Shown here piece by piece: positions 40,337 through 62,967 of a stretch of 64,000 nt of DNA. How positions within the stretch are numbered: position 1 is the stretch's first letter; each line of letters begins with the position of its first letter. The notes below the pieces were generated by a model. That model saw only the letters and a list, made by a program, of their open reading frames with translations. It had not been told where the DNA came from and searched no databases. The stretch is from a virus. Taxonomy: Duplodnaviria; Caudoviricetes. Made by a program: the position numbers and the translations under genes. The DNA lies in IMG/VR virus record IMGVR_UViG_3300048549_001527; one strand, 5' to 3'.

Positions 40337-40783
40337 ATGAGTGATGAACACATTTCTAAAGCGTTAGGTTTAACACCGCTTTCAGAATTAAACGATGAAA
40401 TGAAAAGCGTACAAGAAGTGCAATCAACGGAAGTGCAAAACATAGAAAAGTTTGAAGTATTACCTACTGAAGGTAATGACGAAAATCTTAACGATATGGA
40501 ACTTGCACGTCAGAATGTTAAAAACATTATTGAACTCGGAGATGACGCAGTTAAAGAAATGGTTGAAATAGCTAAGCAATCAGAGTCTCCTCGGGCCTTT
40601 GAAGTTGTGTCGACTTTAATGAAAACATTACTTGACGCAAACAAAGATTATGTTGATATATCTACCAAAAAGAAATTTGCACAGGATGATAAACCTGAAA
40701 AGGAAACAAATGTTACGAATAATAACTTGATAGTCTCAACTGCAGATTTACTTAAAATGATTAAAGGCGATGATAATGCTTGA
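40337..40783 (+). CDS. gp16: Terminase small subunit gp16
   Basis: D.E.AR.N....I..G..A..EM.E.A..SESPRAFEV...L.K...DAN; TNNNLIVST..LL. Confidence 0.95.
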   Translation: MSDEHISKALGLTPLSELNDEMKSVQEVQSTEVQNIEKFEVLPTEGNDENLNDMELARQNVKNIIELGDDAVKEMVEIAKQSESPRAFEVVSTLMKTLLDANKDYVDISTKKKFAQDDKPEKETNVTNNNLIVSTADLLKMIKGDDNA

Positions 40784-42374
40784 GATGATGAAAGGTTATC
40801 TCGGTAATAATAATCTTAAAAGAGTTGGTGAGCAATTAGAATGGACTCCTGATATGCTAAAGGAGTACATGAAATGTGCTGAAGATCCAATATATTTTGC
40901 TAAGGAATATATAAAAATTGTTCATGTTGATAGAGGCCTAGTTCCTTTTCAAATGTATCCTTATCAAGAAAACATCACAAAAAAGATTACAGATAATCGC
41001 AGAGTTGCAGTATTAACTGCACGTCAGTCTGGTAAAACAACCACTGCAATGGCAATCATTTTACATTATGTATTGTTCAATGAATTTAAAACCGTCGCTA
41101 TTTTAGCAAACAAAGGAGATGCTGCAAGAGAAGTTATGGCTCGAGTCAAGTTGGCTTTTGAGGCTTTACCTAAATGGTTGCAGCAAGGAGTTGAAGAATG
41201 GAACAAAGGAAACATTGCGCTTGAAAACGGTTGTCAGGTTTTGGCAGGAACGACATCATCATCAGCAATTCGTGGTAAGTCAGTTAATTTTCTATATCTC
41301 GATGAGGTTGCATTCATCGAAGGATACGACGATTTTTTCGCATCTGTTTATCCTACTATCTCGTCTGGTGAGTCAACAAAACTTTTAATGACTTCAACTC
41401 CTAATGGTCTAAACCATTTTTGGAAAACTTGCAAAGGCGCAAGAGAAAAAACTAATGGTTATGAATACGAAGAAGTTATGTGGCAAGATGTTCCAGGACG
41501 AGACGAAAAGTGGAAAGAAGAAACACTCGCTGCATTAGATTACGATGAACAGAAATTTAGACAAGAATATTGTTGTGAGTTTTTAGGATCCTCAGGAACG
41601 TTGATTGATGGATCCAAACTAAAACAATTAGCATATGATAGACCTATACACGAACAAGAAAACACATTTCAATATTTTAAACCTGAAAAAGACCACAGTT
41701 ATGTTATGACTTGTGATGTATCTCGAGGAAAAGGTTTAGACTATTCAACCTTTAACATTATAGACATTAGCAAAATGCCGTATCAACAAGTATGCACATT
41801 TCGCGACAACTATATTAGCCCAATTGATTTCGCTTCATTTATATATAGAATAGGTAATCTATATAATGAAGCTGCTGTTCTTATAGAAATTAATGATATA
41901 GGCGAACAAGTTTCAGATGTTTTATTAATGGATTATGGATACGAAAATTTACTTTATTCCGAAAGCGCAGGCGCGAAAGGCAAACGAATTTCGTCTGGAT
42001 TTGGAGGAAGAAAACTTGATAATGGAATACGAACTACCAAGACTGTAAAAGCTCAAGGTTGTTCTATGTTGAAAATGCTCATTGAGCAAGATCAACTTAT
42101 ACTAAGAGATTATAATACTTTGCAGGAATTATCACGTTTTTCCAAAAAGGGTCCATCTTATGAAGCTGAGCCCGGAGCACATGATGATTTAGTAATGAAT
42201 TTGGTTTTATTTGCTTGGTTATCTGACCAAGATTATTTTAAAGAATTAACTGATATTAATACTCTTCAAGCACTGCGCGAAAAGACTGATGCGCAAATTG
42301 ATGAAGAATTACTCCCCTTCGGATTTATAGATGACGGTGGGGAATTGTGGGAAGACGAAAACATCAGGTTCTAA
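40776..42374 (+). CDS. gp17: Terminase large subunit gp17
   Basis: YLGN.NLK; Walker A RQSGKTT; IRGKS..FLYLDEVAF; STPNGLNHF; DVSRG.G.DYS; HDDLVM. An alternative in-frame ATG lies at 40770. Confidence 0.97.
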   Translation: MLEMMKGYLGNNNLKRVGEQLEWTPDMLKEYMKCAEDPIYFAKEYIKIVHVDRGLVPFQMYPYQENITKKITDNRRVAVLTARQSGKTTTAMAIILHYVLFNEFKTVAILANKGDAAREVMARVKLAFEALPKWLQQGVEEWNKGNIALENGCQVLAGTTSSSAIRGKSVNFLYLDEVAFIEGYDDFFASVYPTISSGESTKLLMTSTPNGLNHFWKTCKGAREKTNGYEYEEVMWQDVPGRDEKWKEETLAALDYDEQKFRQEYCCEFLGSSGTLIDGSKLKQLAYDRPIHEQENTFQYFKPEKDHSYVMTCDVSRGKGLDYSTFNIIDISKMPYQQVCTFRDNYISPIDFASFIYRIGNLYNEAAVLIEINDIGEQVSDVLLMDYGYENLLYSESAGAKGKRISSGFGGRKLDNGIRTTKTVKAQGCSMLKMLIEQDQLILRDYNTLQELSRFSKKGPSYEAEPGAHDDLVMNLVLFAWLSDQDYFKELTDINTLQALREKTDAQIDEELLPFGFIDDGGELWEDENIRF

Positions 42375-49416: not shown

Positions 49417-49424
49417 TATAAATA
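49417..49424 (+). promoter_or_regulatory. T4-type late promoter for gp23
   Basis: TATAAATA; AGGAG SD. Confidence 0.85.
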
Positions 49425-49464: not shown

Positions 49465-50772
49465 ATGACTCAGTCAAACTATCAAGCGCTTGTAGAAAAG
49501 TGGGGCCCAGTTCTGGAGCACGACTCTTTTGCAAACATTAAAGATCAGCACCGTAAATCGGTCACTGCAACTGTTCTAGAGAATACTCAAAAAGCTCTAG
49601 TATCTGAAGGTGATCTGAGTGCAAACATGACTTCGCTTTTGTCTGAAGCAACTCATGTAAACGACGCAGGCACAGGTGGCTTCGGCGCAGACTCAACTGC
49701 TGCTGGTCCAACTGCAGGTTACGACCCAATCCTAATTTCATTGGTACGTCGTGCAATGCCAAACTTGATCGCATATGACATCGCTGGTGTTCAGCCGATG
49801 ACTGGCCCAACAGGCTTGATCTTCGCAATGCGTTCAACACATACTACGCAAGCTGCGGCTAACGAAGTATTTTATAACGAAGCTGATACAGACTTCTCAG
49901 GTACAGGTACTCATGCACAAGCATTGGGTTCAGCCAACTCAACAGTTACTACAACTGGTACGGGCCTTGCTACTGCAGATGCTGAATCAGACGCCAACTT
50001 CAACGAAATGGCATTCTCAATCGAGAAGGTTTCCGTAACAGCGAAATCACGCCAGTTGAAAGCGGAATACACAGCTGAGCTTGCTCAGGATCTTAAAGCC
50101 GTACACGGTTTGGATGCTGAAACAGAATTGGCTAACATTCTGCAATCAGAAATCTTGGTTGAAATCAACCGCGAATTGGTTCGTACTATTTACACAAACG
50201 CGGTACTCGGCGCAGCCGGTACAGCAACTCCAGGTACTTTTGATCTGGATGTTGATGCAAATGGTCGTTGGTCAGTTGAAAAATTCAAAGGCCTGATGTT
50301 CCAAATCGAGCAAGAAGCAAACGCAATTGCAAAAGGTACACGTCGTGGTAAAGGTAACATGGTTATCTGTTCTTCCGATGTTGCATCCGCATTGCAAATG
50401 GCAGGTGTTCTTGATTATACTCCAGCATTGAACAGCAATGCACTTGACGTAGATGACACAGGCAACACATTCGCCGGTGTTCTGAACGGTCGTTACAGAG
50501 TATACATCGATCCATATGCCGGAGCTAACTACATGGTTGTAGGTTATAAAGGTTCTTCATCTTTCGATGCAGGTATCTTCTATTGCCCATACGTACCGTT
50601 GCAGATGGTTCGCGCAGTTGGTGAAAACAGCTTCCAGCCAAAAATCGGATTTAAGACTCGCTACGGCATGGTCTCTAACCCGTTCTCAGCTGGCGCTTCA
50701 CAAGGCAACGGCGCATTGACTGTAGACTCAAACGTTTACTACCGTCGTGTAACTGTAAGCAACTTGTTTTAA
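49465..50772 (+). CDS. gp23: Major capsid protein gp23
   Basis: L.EKW.PVLEH; YDP.LISLVRRAMPNLIAYDI.GVQPMTGPTGLIFAMR; AKSR.LKAEY..ELAQDLKA.HGLDAE; YCPYVPL; FQPKIGFKTRYG; probable maturation site LLSE-AT. Confidence 0.98.
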   Translation: MTQSNYQALVEKWGPVLEHDSFANIKDQHRKSVTATVLENTQKALVSEGDLSANMTSLLSEATHVNDAGTGGFGADSTAAGPTAGYDPILISLVRRAMPNLIAYDIAGVQPMTGPTGLIFAMRSTHTTQAAANEVFYNEADTDFSGTGTHAQALGSANSTVTTTGTGLATADAESDANFNEMAFSIEKVSVTAKSRQLKAEYTAELAQDLKAVHGLDAETELANILQSEILVEINRELVRTIYTNAVLGAAGTATPGTFDLDVDANGRWSVEKFKGLMFQIEQEANAIAKGTRRGKGNMVICSSDVASALQMAGVLDYTPALNSNALDVDDTGNTFAGVLNGRYRVYIDPYAGANYMVVGYKGSSSFDAGIFYCPYVPLQMVRAVGENSFQPKIGFKTRYGMVSNPFSAGASQGNGALTVDSNVYYRRVTVSNLF

Positions 50773-50808: not shown

Positions 50809-50834
50809 GGGGAGCTTTTCAGCTCCCCTTTTTT
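50809..50834 (+). terminator. Intrinsic terminator after gp23
   Basis: GGGGAGCT-TTTC-AGCTCCCC followed by TTTTTT. Confidence 0.9.
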
Positions 50835-50852: not shown

Positions 50853-51197
50853 TTACATTCCTAGAGCATCCATATACATTTCAGTCATTGCGTTTTCATT
50901 ATCAATATCATCACGGTTACGTTTACGAATTGAGACAATTTTACGCATTACCTTTGGTTCATATCCGCTGCCTTTTGCTTCGGCATAAACTTCCTTGATA
51001 GAGTCCATGATATCTCTCTTTTCTTGTTCCAAACGCTCAATCCGCTCAATGAATGCGCGAAGTTCATCTGCTGTTACTGTTGCTGTATCTTGTGCCATTA
51101 AATAATCTCCTGCTGTTGTAAATTTCAAATCACCCATATTATTACGATTAACAGCATCATAATCAGGGTAGCCTTTTTCAAAGACTGGGCTTTCCAT
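50853..51197 (-). CDS. gapR: DUF2312/GapR-like nucleoid-associated DNA-binding protein (core 81 aa from the ATG at 51098; optional 33-aa N-terminal extension from 51197)
   Basis: ADELRAFIERIERLEQEK..I...IKEVYAEAKG.GY..KVMRKIV..RKR is the GapR signature; SD present at both in-frame ATGs. Confidence 0.9.
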   Translation of the reverse strand: MESPVFEKGYPDYDAVNRNNMGDLKFTTAGDYLMAQDTATVTADELRAFIERIERLEQEKRDIMDSIKEVYAEAKGSGYEPKVMRKIVSIRKRNRDDIDNENAMTEMYMDALGM

Positions 51198-51619
51198 TAA
51201 AGTTTTCCTTCTTCTCTCATTTGTTTACGGATTTTAGTTGCCGATATATCATGTATATCTTTACCAAGATCGTGCTCTGTAAAGGTATATCCAACACCAC
51301 GGCCATAACTAATATCAACAATATTAGGTACTTCTAAAATCATATATTCAAATCCATTGTGATATCCGTGTTCAGCTAAACCATTTTCGATATTCTCAAC
51401 AACTTGGATCATACCAAACGGATTATCATCTTGAGCTGCAGTACGCCCAGCGCCTGCATCTCCTTCAAAATTAAATACGTCACGTATCATAATAAGGACT
51501 TGACCTGTTTCCGCGAGTGCGCATTTAAACAGTTCAGTGTGACCGTCATGCCAAGGTTGCCATCGGCCTAACATTTGTGTGGTTGGTTTTTTATAGTCAA
51601 ATTGTGGTTTATCATACAT
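51197..51619 (-). CDS. Small HxGH-type nucleotidyltransferase (cytidylyl/NMN-adenylyltransferase-like)
   Basis: LGRWQPWHDGH; ISATKIR C-terminal motif. Confidence 0.8.
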   Translation of the reverse strand: MYDKPQFDYKKPTTQMLGRWQPWHDGHTELFKCALAETGQVLIMIRDVFNFEGDAGAGRTAAQDDNPFGMIQVVENIENGLAEHGYHNGFEYMILEVPNIVDISYGRGVGYTFTEHDLGKDIHDISATKIRKQMREEGKL

Positions 51620-52040
51620 TTCCGTGTAACCTTACGTGCCGCTCTACAGCATCAGCTAAAGTTTCATCAGTGTTATCAAACCATTTAGTCACATGATAAT
51701 CTGCTTGAGTTGGTTTTTGAAACATCTTGTTTGTATCTCCAAATCGCCCTTCTTTAATAGTATCCATCCATACTGTATAGTCAGCATCAAAGATTTCACG
51801 AGTTTCTTCAAGTGGACAGACAAAATCGCAAATAACAGTTCGTTTCATTTCTTTTTCGTAATCGGCAATTCCTTTCATACGATAAGCTTGACGTAAACGC
51901 GCTGCTTCGCTGAATTCCCAATCGTTTGCCATTTCGCGGATTTTATCGGCATTAAACCAAGCGCAATTCAAACGCTTTTGTAGTCTTTCTGCTAGCCAAG
52001 TTTTACCTGACCCAGGCAACCCAAAGATCAATATTTTCAT
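51612..52040 (-). CDS. Adenylylsulfate (APS) kinase-like P-loop kinase
   Basis: GLPGSGKT; NAD.IR.....FS...R; CDFVCP....R resembles the CysC ISFISP...R motif. Confidence 0.75.
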   Translation of the reverse strand: MKILIFGLPGSGKTWLAERLQKRLNCAWFNADKIREMANDWEFSEAARLRQAYRMKGIADYEKEMKRTVICDFVCPLEETREIFDADYTVWMDTIKEGRFGDTNKMFQKPTQADYHVTKWFDNTDETLADAVERHVRLHGNV

Positions 52041-53506: not shown

Positions 53507-53535
53507 AGTATATACTGATTCCATTATAATGTCAA
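53507..53535 (-). promoter_or_regulatory. Sigma70-type early promoter P1
   Basis: TTGACA-17-TATACT; GAATC in the spacer. Confidence 0.85.
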
Positions 53536-57918: not shown

Positions 57919-58191
57919 TTAGGCTACTTTCTTTAATAGTGATGGTGTAACTTTCCAAGTTACGGTAGGAGTTTTAACGACGATAGTCTTCTGATTGATT
58001 TTTGAAATCAGACCTTCAATACGACCACGGCGATTTGCGTCAAACCAAACTTTATCTCCGACGTTAAATGCGTTTCCGATTTCACGTTGCGTTTGACGTT
58101 GACGATTTTTGACTTCTGTGATAATTGCATCAAGTGTATCCTTGTCAGCGTTACGGATTGTTTTCAGTGTTGTTTGGTTTAACTTTTTCAT
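57919..58191 (-). CDS. Hypothetical protein with KOW/SH3-like C-terminus
   Basis: FNVGDKVWF...G.I.KIN.KT..V; SD AAAGGA favours the ATG at 58191. Confidence 0.65.
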   Translation of the reverse strand: MKKLNQTTLKTIRNADKDTLDAIITEVKNRQRQTQREIGNAFNVGDKVWFDANRRGRIEGLISKINQKTIVVKTPTVTWKVTPSLLKKVA

Positions 58192-58217
58192 TTTCATTTT
58201 CCTTTGTTGATATATAC

Positions 58218-58246
58218 AATCTATCTGATTCGCGAGCAAATGTCAA
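58218..58246 (-). promoter_or_regulatory. Sigma70-type early promoter P4
   Basis: TTGACA-17-TAGATT; CGAATCA in the spacer (TGATTCG on the + strand). Confidence 0.8.
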
Positions 58247-61856: not shown

Positions 61857-62096
61857 TTATTTAAATACCAACTTTACTACTTCGTAATCTCTTAATACTT
61901 CAAAGGTGGCCGTAGCTAAATCAATAGTAGGTTCTTTTCTTATTCTTGATAAAACCCTGTCTACAAAGAATAGTTCTTTTCCATTATCTGCCATGATTTC
62001 AAGGCCTTCAAAAAAAGTTTCAATGTCATAAGGATTTTCATTGAAAACACTTTTCAGATAACGCTGAGTTTCTGTTCTGTTTGCTGATTTGTCCAC
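61857..62096 (-). CDS. Hypothetical protein
   Basis: AGGAAGGA SD; start overlaps the end of the kinase gene. Confidence 0.55.
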   Translation of the reverse strand: MDKSANRTETQRYLKSVFNENPYDIETFFEGLEIMADNGKELFFVDRVLSRIRKEPTIDLATATFEVLRDYEVVKLVFK

Positions 62097-62712
62097 GTTG
62101 TCCTTCCTTTTTATATATTGCTTCTAAAACATTATGAAGGTCTTTAAGATTTCCATTGTTATGGATTCTGTAAGTGTCAACTTCAAACTTATGAGGCAAT
62201 ACATATTTTTTATTGATTGCGGTCTGTTTTTCGTTAGTGAACTCTTGAATAACGTTACCGTCAAAATAACGCCTTGAGTCCGTCGAATAATCACAGCCTT
62301 CACGTGTAAGCTGCACTAATACGAAATTATTGGATCCAACTCTATTTATAACAGGAAGGAGTTCGTCAACAAATCCGCCGTCAGAAATTGCGTAATTCTT
62401 ACTCATATCAATTTCGTTTGCAACTTGTAGACCAAAATAATCTAAACCACGTTTAGGCTTAATTACTTTTTCTGAAACATAAATCATTGCTTCACGGCAA
62501 GACATATGGCCAAGATCCATATGAGGAACTTCTTTTACAGAACGATCGTCATATCTATTCATAAACCATTCATAGCTTATATCAAAGTATTTTGCGGTTT
62601 CTTTATACAATTGATATTTAAAAGAAAGGTGTTTCCAACCTTTTTGTTTTTTGAAATAATCAGCAGCTGCGTCTTTTCCTGAAAGAGGAGGACCATTAAA
62701 TAAAATGATCAT
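62038..62712 (-). CDS. gp1: Deoxynucleoside monophosphate kinase (T4 gp1-like)
   Basis: NGPPLSGKD.AA; HLSFK..L; SCREAMI..SE...KP..G..YFG; ISDGGF.DE; start at 62712 by ATGA overlap. Confidence 0.8.
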   Translation of the reverse strand: MIILFNGPPLSGKDAAADYFKKQKGWKHLSFKYQLYKETAKYFDISYEWFMNRYDDRSVKEVPHMDLGHMSCREAMIYVSEKVIKPKRGLDYFGLQVANEIDMSKNYAISDGGFVDELLPVINRVGSNNFVLVQLTREGCDYSTDSRRYFDGNVIQEFTNEKQTAINKKYVLPHKFEVDTYRIHNNGNLKDLHNVLEAIYKKEGQRGQISKQNRNSALSEKCFQ

Positions 62713-62939
62713 GCAAATTGGTCCTCCACGATATTTAGAATTTCTTCGGAAAACGCATTTTTCCATTCTTGAGGTGTCATGCCCGAAAGAATGAATTCAC
62801 GATCTTCAATTGATAAGTAAGGAAGTAAGTCATCCATACTTCCGTACCCAGCTTCGTATTGAGCAAAGTCTTTAGGATCCATAGGAATATCCTTTGTGCG
62901 GACAATTCCTGAAAAGGCACTTGTTTTTTTGATAATCAT
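62709..62939 (-). CDS. Hypothetical early protein
   Basis: GGAG SD favours the ATG at 62939; LS.EDREFI.SG.TP.EW motif; behind P7. Confidence 0.7.
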   Translation of the reverse strand: MIIKKTSAFSGIVRTKDIPMDPKDFAQYEAGYGSMDDLLPYLSIEDREFILSGMTPQEWKNAFSEEILNIVEDQFA

Positions 62940-62967
62940 GACATTCTCCATTAACTGATTCTAGATT

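Follow-up and report, generated by a model that had tools for sequence, protein, structure and literature searches.

In this study, we asked what a gene of the GapR family does on the genome of an uncultured T4-like phage, and why its reading frame holds two start sites that could each be used. The window, as we call the whole stretch of DNA analysed here (64,000 nt, IMG/VR record IMGVR_UViG_3300048549_001527), belongs to a T4-like phage and has a G+C content of 39 %. Since GapR genes have already been reported in phages, the presence of GapR alone would be ordinary; the questions concern the place that the gene occupies and the make-up of its N terminus. The initial annotation had described a 114-aa ORF with two in-frame ATGs, each with a Shine–Dalgarno (SD) sequence at about 8 nt, and a TAATG coupling of the first ATG to the stop codon of the gene upstream. 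This layout was reproduced together with the quoted protein sequence, both 5-nt SD cores lying at 8 nt, and the features of the gene are as follows.

50853–51197, minus strand: whole GapR ORF of 114 aa, consisting of tag, presumed older N terminus and GapR core, with the stop codon TAA at 50855–50853
51206–51210, minus strand: SD1, AAGGA, 8 nt ahead of ATG1
51197–51195, minus strand: ATG1, overlapping the TAA of the upstream nucleotidyltransferase-like gene (TAATG)
51144–51188, minus strand: portable motif, residues P4–R18, PVFEKGYPDYDAVNR, with conserved residues and varying codons, found elsewhere beside more than 60 unrelated flanks
51135–51137, minus strand: M21, a third in-frame ATG, without an SD or purine-rich stretch ahead of it
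51106–51125, minus strand: block AAATTTACAACAGCAGGAGA of near-invariant nucleotides, holding the internal SD (GGAG at 51110–51107)
51096–51098, minus strand: ATG34, at which the 81-aa form starts; in the alignment, relatives of 80–81 aa have their start codon at this place
50859–51074, minus strand: GapR DNA-binding domain, residues 42–113, a PF10073 match with two predicted long helices

The stop codon of the upstream 140-aa gene (TAA, 51199–51197) shares its last A, at 51197, with the first A of ATG1, and the AGAAGGAAAA..TAATG junction recurs in relatives. The internal SD reads (C)AGGAG (51111–51107), with 8 nt between the end of GGAG and ATG34.

Judged by its sequence, the window gene is a true GapR-family gene of a phage. 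The DUF2312/GapR match claimed at the outset for the C-terminal part of the protein was confirmed with the Pfam profile GapR_DNA-bd (PF10073), the only Pfam family matched, over residues 42–113 and the complete model (positions 1–72 of 72; E 3.1e-31, 107 bits against a cut-off of 22.6), and the GapR chains 6CFY, 6CG8 and 6OZX in the PDB were matched with E values of 1e-19 to 1e-22. In a HMMER alignment to Caulobacter GapR, each helix lysine is paired with a lysine or arginine of the window protein, namely K60, K68, K75, K82, R85/K86 and K92, plus R91. Their Caulobacter partners are presumably K34, K42, K49, K56, K59/60 and K66 in native numbering, with R65 opposite R91. DNA binding by GapR was shown to depend on six conserved lysines of the channel, together with an arginine observed in the complex with DNA (Tarry et al., PMC6853979). 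An AlphaFold2 model based on 17 relatives places two long helices at residues 43–76 and 81–111 (pLDDT 79–94), with helices 2 and 3 merged in the monomer model, where the protomer of the tetrameric GapR clamp has a long N-terminal helix and shorter ones after it; residues 1–40 have a pLDDT of about 50 and therefore form a flexible tail. It has been reported that the first eleven residues of GapR are predicted to be disordered, and they were removed in one crystallisation construct (PMC6853979).

The window protein has the full-length domain and the basic channel residues in common with the GapR proteins (UPF0335/DUF2312) of Caulobacter crescentus and other alphaproteobacteria, its predicted helix layout may be the same, and its 81-aa form fits the usual GapR size of 80–95 aa. 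The hallmarks of cellular GapR are affinity for AT-rich or overtwisted DNA and a stimulating effect on type II topoisomerases. Unlike cellular GapR, the window protein is encoded on a lytic T4-like phage genome, and its N terminus is longer by 33 residues, which include a foreign portable motif; a second start is probable. Among named cellular proteins, the closest homologues come from Rhodobacterales (Jannaschia, Marivivens and Ruegeria; 68–70 % identity), and the host is probably an alphaproteobacterium. Because the core is about 70 % identical to GapR of Rhodobacterales, the earlier proposal that the phage protein poisons host GapR is plausible. That phage homologues exist, as had also been stated, is borne out by 155 GenBank phage records matching GapR and by a 2025 paper that reported GapR in Erythrobacter phages (PMC12185513). 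The proteins of cultured alphaproteobacterial phages, among them roseophage DSS3-P1, Loktanella phage pCB2051-A, Erythrobacter phage R34L1 and Rhodobacter phages with 'DsbA-like' genes, are likewise PF10073 proteins, of 85–109 aa; they differ from the window protein in having other N-terminal tails, without the PVFEKGYP motif. A GLDDL...AG likeness to the roseophage tails is weak and perhaps due to chance, and the comparison of MGDLKFTTAG with the GLDDLxxxxAG tails was dropped as too weak for use. The exact window protein was found on 35 public contigs, the longest of 210,865 nt.

The neighbour of the GapR gene is gp23, for the major capsid protein (49465–50772, plus strand; Pfam Gp23, E 1e-142), ahead of which a T4-type late promoter word, TATAAATA, is located at 49417–49424 as a consensus match only. 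GapR is the last of six minus-strand genes, preceded by genes for a DUF932 protein, two small membrane-like ORFs, a P-loop kinase-like protein and a 140-aa nucleotidyltransferase-like protein, and the surroundings contain the following elements.

50809–50828: 8-bp, GC-rich hairpin common to the convergent GapR and gp23 genes, with a T-run on the plus strand only; a candidate terminator by consensus match only
51197–52040, minus strand: overlapping gene pair upstream of GapR, kinase-like (51612–52040) and 140-aa nucleotidyltransferase-like (51197–51619), the conserved anchor of the slot held by DsbA or GapR
53507–53535, minus strand: sigma-70-like promoter TTGACA-17-TATACT (11/12) heading the six-gene unit; consensus match only

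This minus-strand unit is probably an early unit. The initial annotation had placed GapR at a point where early and late transcription converge; the convergent layout is indeed present, and the early and late timing agrees with consensus promoter words only. The accompanying idea was that GapR relieves positive supercoils at this point, which it may do. The kinase-like and nucleotidyltransferase-like pair is widespread, with 329 IMG/VR loci encoding a relative of the 140-aa protein.

The position downstream of this pair is what links the gene to T4 DsbA. In T4 the mechanism of DsbA itself is poorly defined. The protein is known to bind dsDNA and to help some late promoters, and it has been described as a homologue of the GapR family (Iyer et al., PMC7824862). 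T4 DsbA and the window protein are alike in their small size, in their remote homology and in the slot that their genes occupy in sister phages. At the level of sequence the likeness is weak: in an hhalign comparison, GapR and T4 DsbA were co-linear over 71 columns with an E value of 4.7e-4 and a probability of 32 %, and T4 DsbA matched PF10073 below threshold (E 0.026). Unlike T4 DsbA, the window protein belongs to the cellular-type GapR family and does not match the Phage_DsbA profile PF11126. A complete relative (G002), whose gp23 is 79 % identical to that of the window, has no PF10073 match in its genome and encodes a DsbA protein (PF11126, E 5.5e-11) directly 3′ of its counterparts of the window genes for the kinase (84 % identity) and the nucleotidyltransferase (74 %), and the C-terminal junction of the nucleotidyltransferase is alike in the two phages (...NERRRNIM in the relative and ...NERRRKTLM in the window).

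A census was made of the best 80 of the 329 nucleotidyltransferase loci, in which the 1.6 kb downstream of each was classified. GapR was found at 45 of these best 80 loci, a DsbA-like gene at 8, both at none and neither at 23, and the slot ran off the contig end in 4. The 45 GapR genes comprised 18 leader-tagged genes, all directly adjacent to the nucleotidyltransferase gene, 21 short genes and 6 of the DLKFTTAGD form. In one locus (L220) the order is nucleotidyltransferase, a 378-aa protein X, DsbA and a 248-aa protein Y; in another (L244) it is nucleotidyltransferase, a 387-aa X, GapR and a 248-aa Y, with X and Y homologous between the two. These flanks of the slot (L220, 2905–5093; L244, 2933–5120), a 378–387-aa gene (MEVKHNTNELYKRDS...) and a 248-aa gene (M[KR][SP]QYEITVPYYQQQESNEPQL...), are common in relatives and absent beside the window GapR. 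Within the best 80 of 329 loci, GapR and DsbA of sister phages therefore hold the same position and exclude each other. From the shared slot and the absence of both genes together we infer that GapR, a distant relative, would have replaced DsbA in situ, which would argue that the phage uses GapR as it would DsbA; the replacing gene likely came from an alphaproteobacterium or from a phage that infects one. The window spans 64 kb, and a DsbA gene may lie elsewhere on this phage genome. The alternation of a cellular-type GapR and a T4-type DsbA in one slot would amount to evidence from nature that either can do the work of the other. This supports the homology proposed for DsbA and GapR and suggests a GapR-like DNA clamp as the mode of action of DsbA, which has been poorly understood from the 1990s onwards.

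The N terminus of the window protein appears to have been built in layers. With the protein, 56 IMG/VR loci were recovered, and the GapR relatives form a nested series: the longest, of 112–120 aa, have the full extension; those of 105–106 aa have a decayed leader (MQTYEAVNG...); those of 92–94 aa start with M(N)DLKFTTAGDY... at a codon homologous to M21 of the window; and those of 80–81 aa start exactly at M34, a few codons downstream of stop codons. Two relatives of 94 aa (P0136) and 116 aa (P0138) have the same core from KFTTAGDYIM to the C terminus and the leader as their sole difference, and therefore the leader can be gained or lost quickly. The N terminus of the cellular Jannaschia GapR, MADLK..., resembles the M21 region of the window protein; since this cellular protein starts in this way, residues 21–33 are probably the original GapR N terminus, the match itself being suggestive only. 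In a codon table of 12 relatives, 10 of the 14 leader positions P4–N17 hold a single amino acid, and at 7 of these 10 that residue is written with two or three synonymous codons. With residues constant and codons varying, the extension is therefore coding and under purifying selection as a translated peptide, so that the leader stands as a real protein segment, and the tagged 114-aa isoform is very likely made. A reading of the extension as a regulatory arm specific to GapR was not upheld; the motif that makes up its first 18 residues is promiscuous and is also found on QueE, dCMP deaminase and other proteins. In one lineage of relatives (L197 and L198, 1492–1812) the GapR leader has decayed to MMQTYEAVNGMGDLKFTTAGDY..., with the PVFEKGYP half deleted, YEAVN kept and a fresh GAGGA SD, evidence that GapR itself can do without the tag.

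Comparison of the same relatives bears on the second start. The block AAATTTACAACAGCAGGAGA is nearly invariant over about 10 lineages. In the codon table, degenerate codons that each take one form only follow one another at a single place, AAA TTT ACA ACA GCA GGA (51125–51108), which spans the internal SD and belongs to the block found in nine of the rows; elsewhere in the table, 11 of 48 degenerate codons at conserved residues (23 %) are invariant. The chance of six invariant codons in a row is about 1.5e-4 per position and below 0.01 over the whole gene. When further lineages were added (L093, L136, L190–193 and L197–198), GCAGGAGA was still invariant, and they contributed one synonymous change, ACA to ACT, upstream of it (in L136). 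At the protein level GGAG could be recoded silently (GCAGGAGAT to GCTGGTGAT). The ATG is kept 5–8 nt after GGAG in every lineage compared, one codon earlier in the L009/L093 lineage, and a methionine that wobbles by one codon within a disordered tail is easier to explain as a start codon than as a structural residue. Short relatives start at the position of ATG34 after in-frame stops, as in the 80-aa form P0119, which was found on 106 contigs. Across the 54 genes of the window, a 5-nt SD core lies 4–10 nt upstream of 6 of 344 internal in-frame ATGs and, by the same measure, at 19 of the 54 gene starts; four of the six, ATG34 included, fall within the first 34 codons. The rarity of internal ATGs with an SD counts for a short GapR isoform. 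The gene thus has two in-frame starts, each with a ribosome-binding site of its own and both conserved. No RNA structure was seen over the internal ribosome-binding site (MFE z-score −0.14, no conserved pairing over the SD), and masking or exposure of the site by such a structure was discarded on these grounds. As to the suggestion that both isoforms could be made, the two starts are real and the comparative data favour the use of both; we consider it reasonably probable that the untagged 81-aa isoform is made as well.

The main competitor is the possibility that only the tagged 114-aa protein is made and that the internal GGAG–ATG is a non-initiating relic, kept for the KFTTAGD peptide or for a translational pause. 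The coupling of ATG1 to the upstream gene would speak for it, since translating ribosomes can occlude internal sites, as would the observation that all 18 leader-tagged GapR genes of the census are located directly 3′ of the nucleotidyltransferase gene. In the tagged QueE and dCMP deaminase genes, moreover, the internal canonical ATG has no good SD, and hence dual initiation is not general among tagged genes. The invariance of the SD block could also come from another constraint on the nucleotides, or from a strict need for the KFTTAG peptide together with codon bias. Against a relic stand the nucleotide fixation of six consecutive degenerate codons, set against less than a quarter of the other conserved codons, and the methionine that shifts by one codon yet stays within the same distance of GGAG. 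The region also belongs to the disordered N-terminal tail, whose structure gives no cause to keep the peptide fixed (residues 1–11 of Caulobacter GapR being dispensable for crystallisation, PMC6853979). We therefore regard exclusive production of the 114-aa form as unlikely, if the most serious of the alternatives. With the untagged isoform included, the nested starts would offer a well-documented comparative case in which a new tag was added in front of a start signal and that signal continues to be kept.

The tag itself is not confined to GapR. Leader-derived patterns also match loci without GapR, where the motif is carried by a QueE-like radical-SAM enzyme, a dCMP deaminase and small proteins, and it is internal in a glycosyltransferase-like protein. 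A 21-position profile run against 1.84 billion proteins gave 96 matches with E below 1e-3, most of 30–110 aa, which include false positives in the form of repetitive proteins with 5–24 partial stretches each (P0001, P0051, P0072, P0080, P0095 and P0096), and a degenerate-DNA scan of IMG/VR for EKGYPSY[DE]AVN by exact matching gave at least 120. Pooled, these amount to at least 203 motif proteins, whose flanks fall into at least 71 BLAST groups, 41 of them singletons among those listed. QueE-like proteins (46) and GapR (9) are partners among the matches listed; further partners are QueD-like, MazG-like, flavodoxin, dGTP_diPhyd_N-type pyrophosphohydrolase and AbrB-like proteins and many unknowns. 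The search for the 33-aa peptide as a separate protein, which the initial annotation had proposed, was thus productive, the peptide being found alone and on other proteins. A stop between the peptide and GapR in relatives, which it had named as evidence to the contrary, was encountered in another sense only, as relatives of 80–81 and 92–94 aa that lack the peptide and as the peptide alone or on other proteins.

Over the 153 distinct variants listed, the motif reads [SEA]-P-V-[FY]-E-K-G-Y-P-[SD]-[YF]-[ED]-A-V-N-[RK], with P, V, A, V and N each present in 147–153 of the 153. Of 89 called proteins, 36 have it at the N terminus, 48 internally and 5 at the C terminus. The carriers are uncultured marine viral contigs, and the motif is absent from 50,697 GenBank records of cultured phages; no domain covering it was found in Pfam or PHROGs, and the ESM Atlas gave no usable match. 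Third codon positions differ between copies of the motif, and it is therefore the peptide, rather than a DNA site, that is under selection. Nine of ten large motif-bearing records (48–275 kb), one a complete genome of 201 kb, have a single copy. In the exception (G012), two copies flank a local duplication at a distance of 956 nt from each other. At this locus (L133; 12030–13014, minus strand) the copies are an identical 29 nt and the 3′ end of the preceding gene and a QueE fragment are duplicated; the first copy forms a 21-aa micro-ORF (MKQTFEWQVYEKGYPSYEAVV), and the second is separated from its ATG by a stop codon, TGA in place of the TGG of the first. Translation of the intact QueE at this locus must therefore begin at the ATG of QueE itself. 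Tagged partners keep their canonical methionine after the tag (QueE ...KPAMKLRYSE, flavodoxin ...KPAMKQRIG, deaminase ...SKMKKWDNRF) and the ATG of the tag has a strong SD, and therefore the tag was added in frame upstream of complete genes. In the complete relative G002, from which GapR is absent, the motif is on dCMP deaminase; it is therefore retained even without GapR. In leader-less GapR relatives the motif was not matched elsewhere, within records that are 10–33 % complete.

Several simple explanations of this distribution were considered and set aside. A tie to the genomic neighbourhood does not hold, as the flanking genes differ among loci of the GapR, QueE, deaminase and glycosyltransferase types, and a tie to the 7-deazaguanine (QueE) pathway does not agree with G002, which has the motif and no QueE. 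A DNA-level repeat or regulatory cassette is incompatible with the varying third positions and with the single copy in nine of ten large records. Sulfation or another modification of Y13, prompted by the adjacent APS-kinase-like pair, is unlikely, since F, W or H is found at Y13 in 15 of the 153 variants listed and residue −1 is usually serine; modification of the invariant Y10 is possible.

Most likely, we suggest, the tag is a docking peptide for one phage or host partner, with a role independent of GapR, because the 15-mer is disordered, independent of position, almost always present in a single copy and highly conserved. More specifically, and only tentatively, we propose that it would work by itself as a docking peptide in a large clade of uncultured marine T4-like phages, with about one copy per genome, that it would engage one specific hub protein of the host or the phage, and that it would hardly matter which early protein carries it, or whether any does; hence its in-frame hops onto GapR, QueE, dCMP deaminase, MazG, flavodoxin and dozens of small ORFs. 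If this were true, the tag on GapR would tether its partner to phage DNA. The motif resembles known portable short linear motifs, such as clamp-binding motifs and the capsid-targeting sequence (CTS) of the T4 proteins IPI–III and Alt, in being short, conserved beyond unrelated flanks, disordered and mobile. Unlike these, it is nearly always single-copy per genome and independent of position (N-terminal, internal, C-terminal or alone), and it has no sequence similarity to either.

These considerations can be combined into one mechanism. GapR, the last gene of the probable early unit, would fill the slot that sister phages give to a T4-type DsbA, and most likely would take on the DsbA job of binding phage dsDNA and aiding transcription and topology during infection. 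Three layers would make up the gene: the portable 15-residue motif, translated from ATG1 through coupling to the upstream gene; an older GapR N terminus, the DNA of which still has a strictly conserved SD and ATG; and the GapR core. Ribosomes starting at ATG1 would give a tagged 114-aa protomer and ribosomes loading at the internal SD an untagged 81-aa protomer, and, because GapR is a tetramer, mixed rings with zero to four flexible tags could form, in which the tag, predicted to be disordered, would dock a phage or host partner. We favour this explanation as a whole, that is, a true GapR in the DsbA slot with a layered N terminus, tagged and untagged isoforms and a docking tag, with somewhat better than even confidence, and give the same standing to its joint statement that the window, from an uncultured marine T4-like phage, encodes a protein that forms rings and binds dsDNA in a DsbA-slot role.

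Alternatively, the motif might act in cis as a regulatory nascent peptide, with a ribosome pausing about 10 codons before the internal SD and so tuning ATG34 or downstream cistrons. Its length of 15 residues selected at the protein level, its frequent location just ahead of an intact canonical start (GapR, QueE, flavodoxin and dCMP deaminase) and its presence in micro-ORFs of 21–40 aa would be consistent with this. A leader ORF, however, would not need to be in frame with its partner, as the motif always is; copies at C-terminal ends have nothing obvious to regulate, and there is no RNA structure for a stalled ribosome to open. To our knowledge the motif resembles none of the known arrest motifs, which also counts against a nascent-peptide function, and we consider such a function improbable.

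A slightly less probable idea still is that the motif is a capsid-targeting sequence of the type found on T4 internal proteins, so that tagged GapR would enter the head during packaging and be delivered to the host along with the DNA. The architecture, in which the cargo varies behind a conserved leader at the N terminus, recalls the T4 CTS, PVFE agrees with a loose [ILV]-x-E protease site, the GapR gene adjoins gp23, and delivery of a DNA-coating protein with the genome would make sense. A CTS is N-terminal on several virion cargo proteins per genome and is cut off by the prohead protease, however, and the distribution of the motif is another: nine of ten large records have one copy and no cargo set, more than half of the called proteins have it internally or at the C terminus, and its partners are cytoplasmic enzymes (QueE, flavodoxin, MazG and dCMP deaminase). 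In addition, the residues past the putative cut site are the most conserved, and the gene is part of a sigma-70-type unit with no late promoter ahead of it. Finally, the notion that the extension is an untranslated, accidentally open 5′ UTR of a true gene of 81 or 94 aa, for which the common and viable short forms of relatives might be cited, is close to refuted by the leader residues held through synonymous change, by the same peptide in frame in about 200 proteins or more, and by an ATG1 with an SD and a stop–start overlap.

Seen as a docking peptide, the tag would be of interest in its own right, as an undescribed peptide of 15 near-invariant residues that is found about once per genome, beside more than 60 unrelated flanks and in uncultured marine viruses only. 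A peptide so conserved and so mobile should have a specific partner, which could reveal a hub of host takeover or replication in abundant ocean phages.

Two minor observations may be added. A second short module, roughly E-[SRG]-Y-[HWY]-[DE]-[YW]-M-[GLI]-R-R-x-R-E-E, is often located beside PVFEKGYP, on either side of it (in P0018, P0021, P0025, P0030 and P0050 and at loci L066, L099, L130, L175 and L178). The order of modules is B-A-C in P0018 and A-B-C in P0021, with the same C-terminal helix, and this reordering suggests that these phages shuffle modules of peptide size in frame and on a fine scale. Within the window, four other long ORFs have an early in-frame ATG with a 5-nt SD core (57919–58239, 62038–62766 and 62709–62951 on the minus strand and 40770–42374 on the plus strand), at codons 17, 19, 24 and 34; these would be either longest-ORF starts that were set wrongly or further nested starts.
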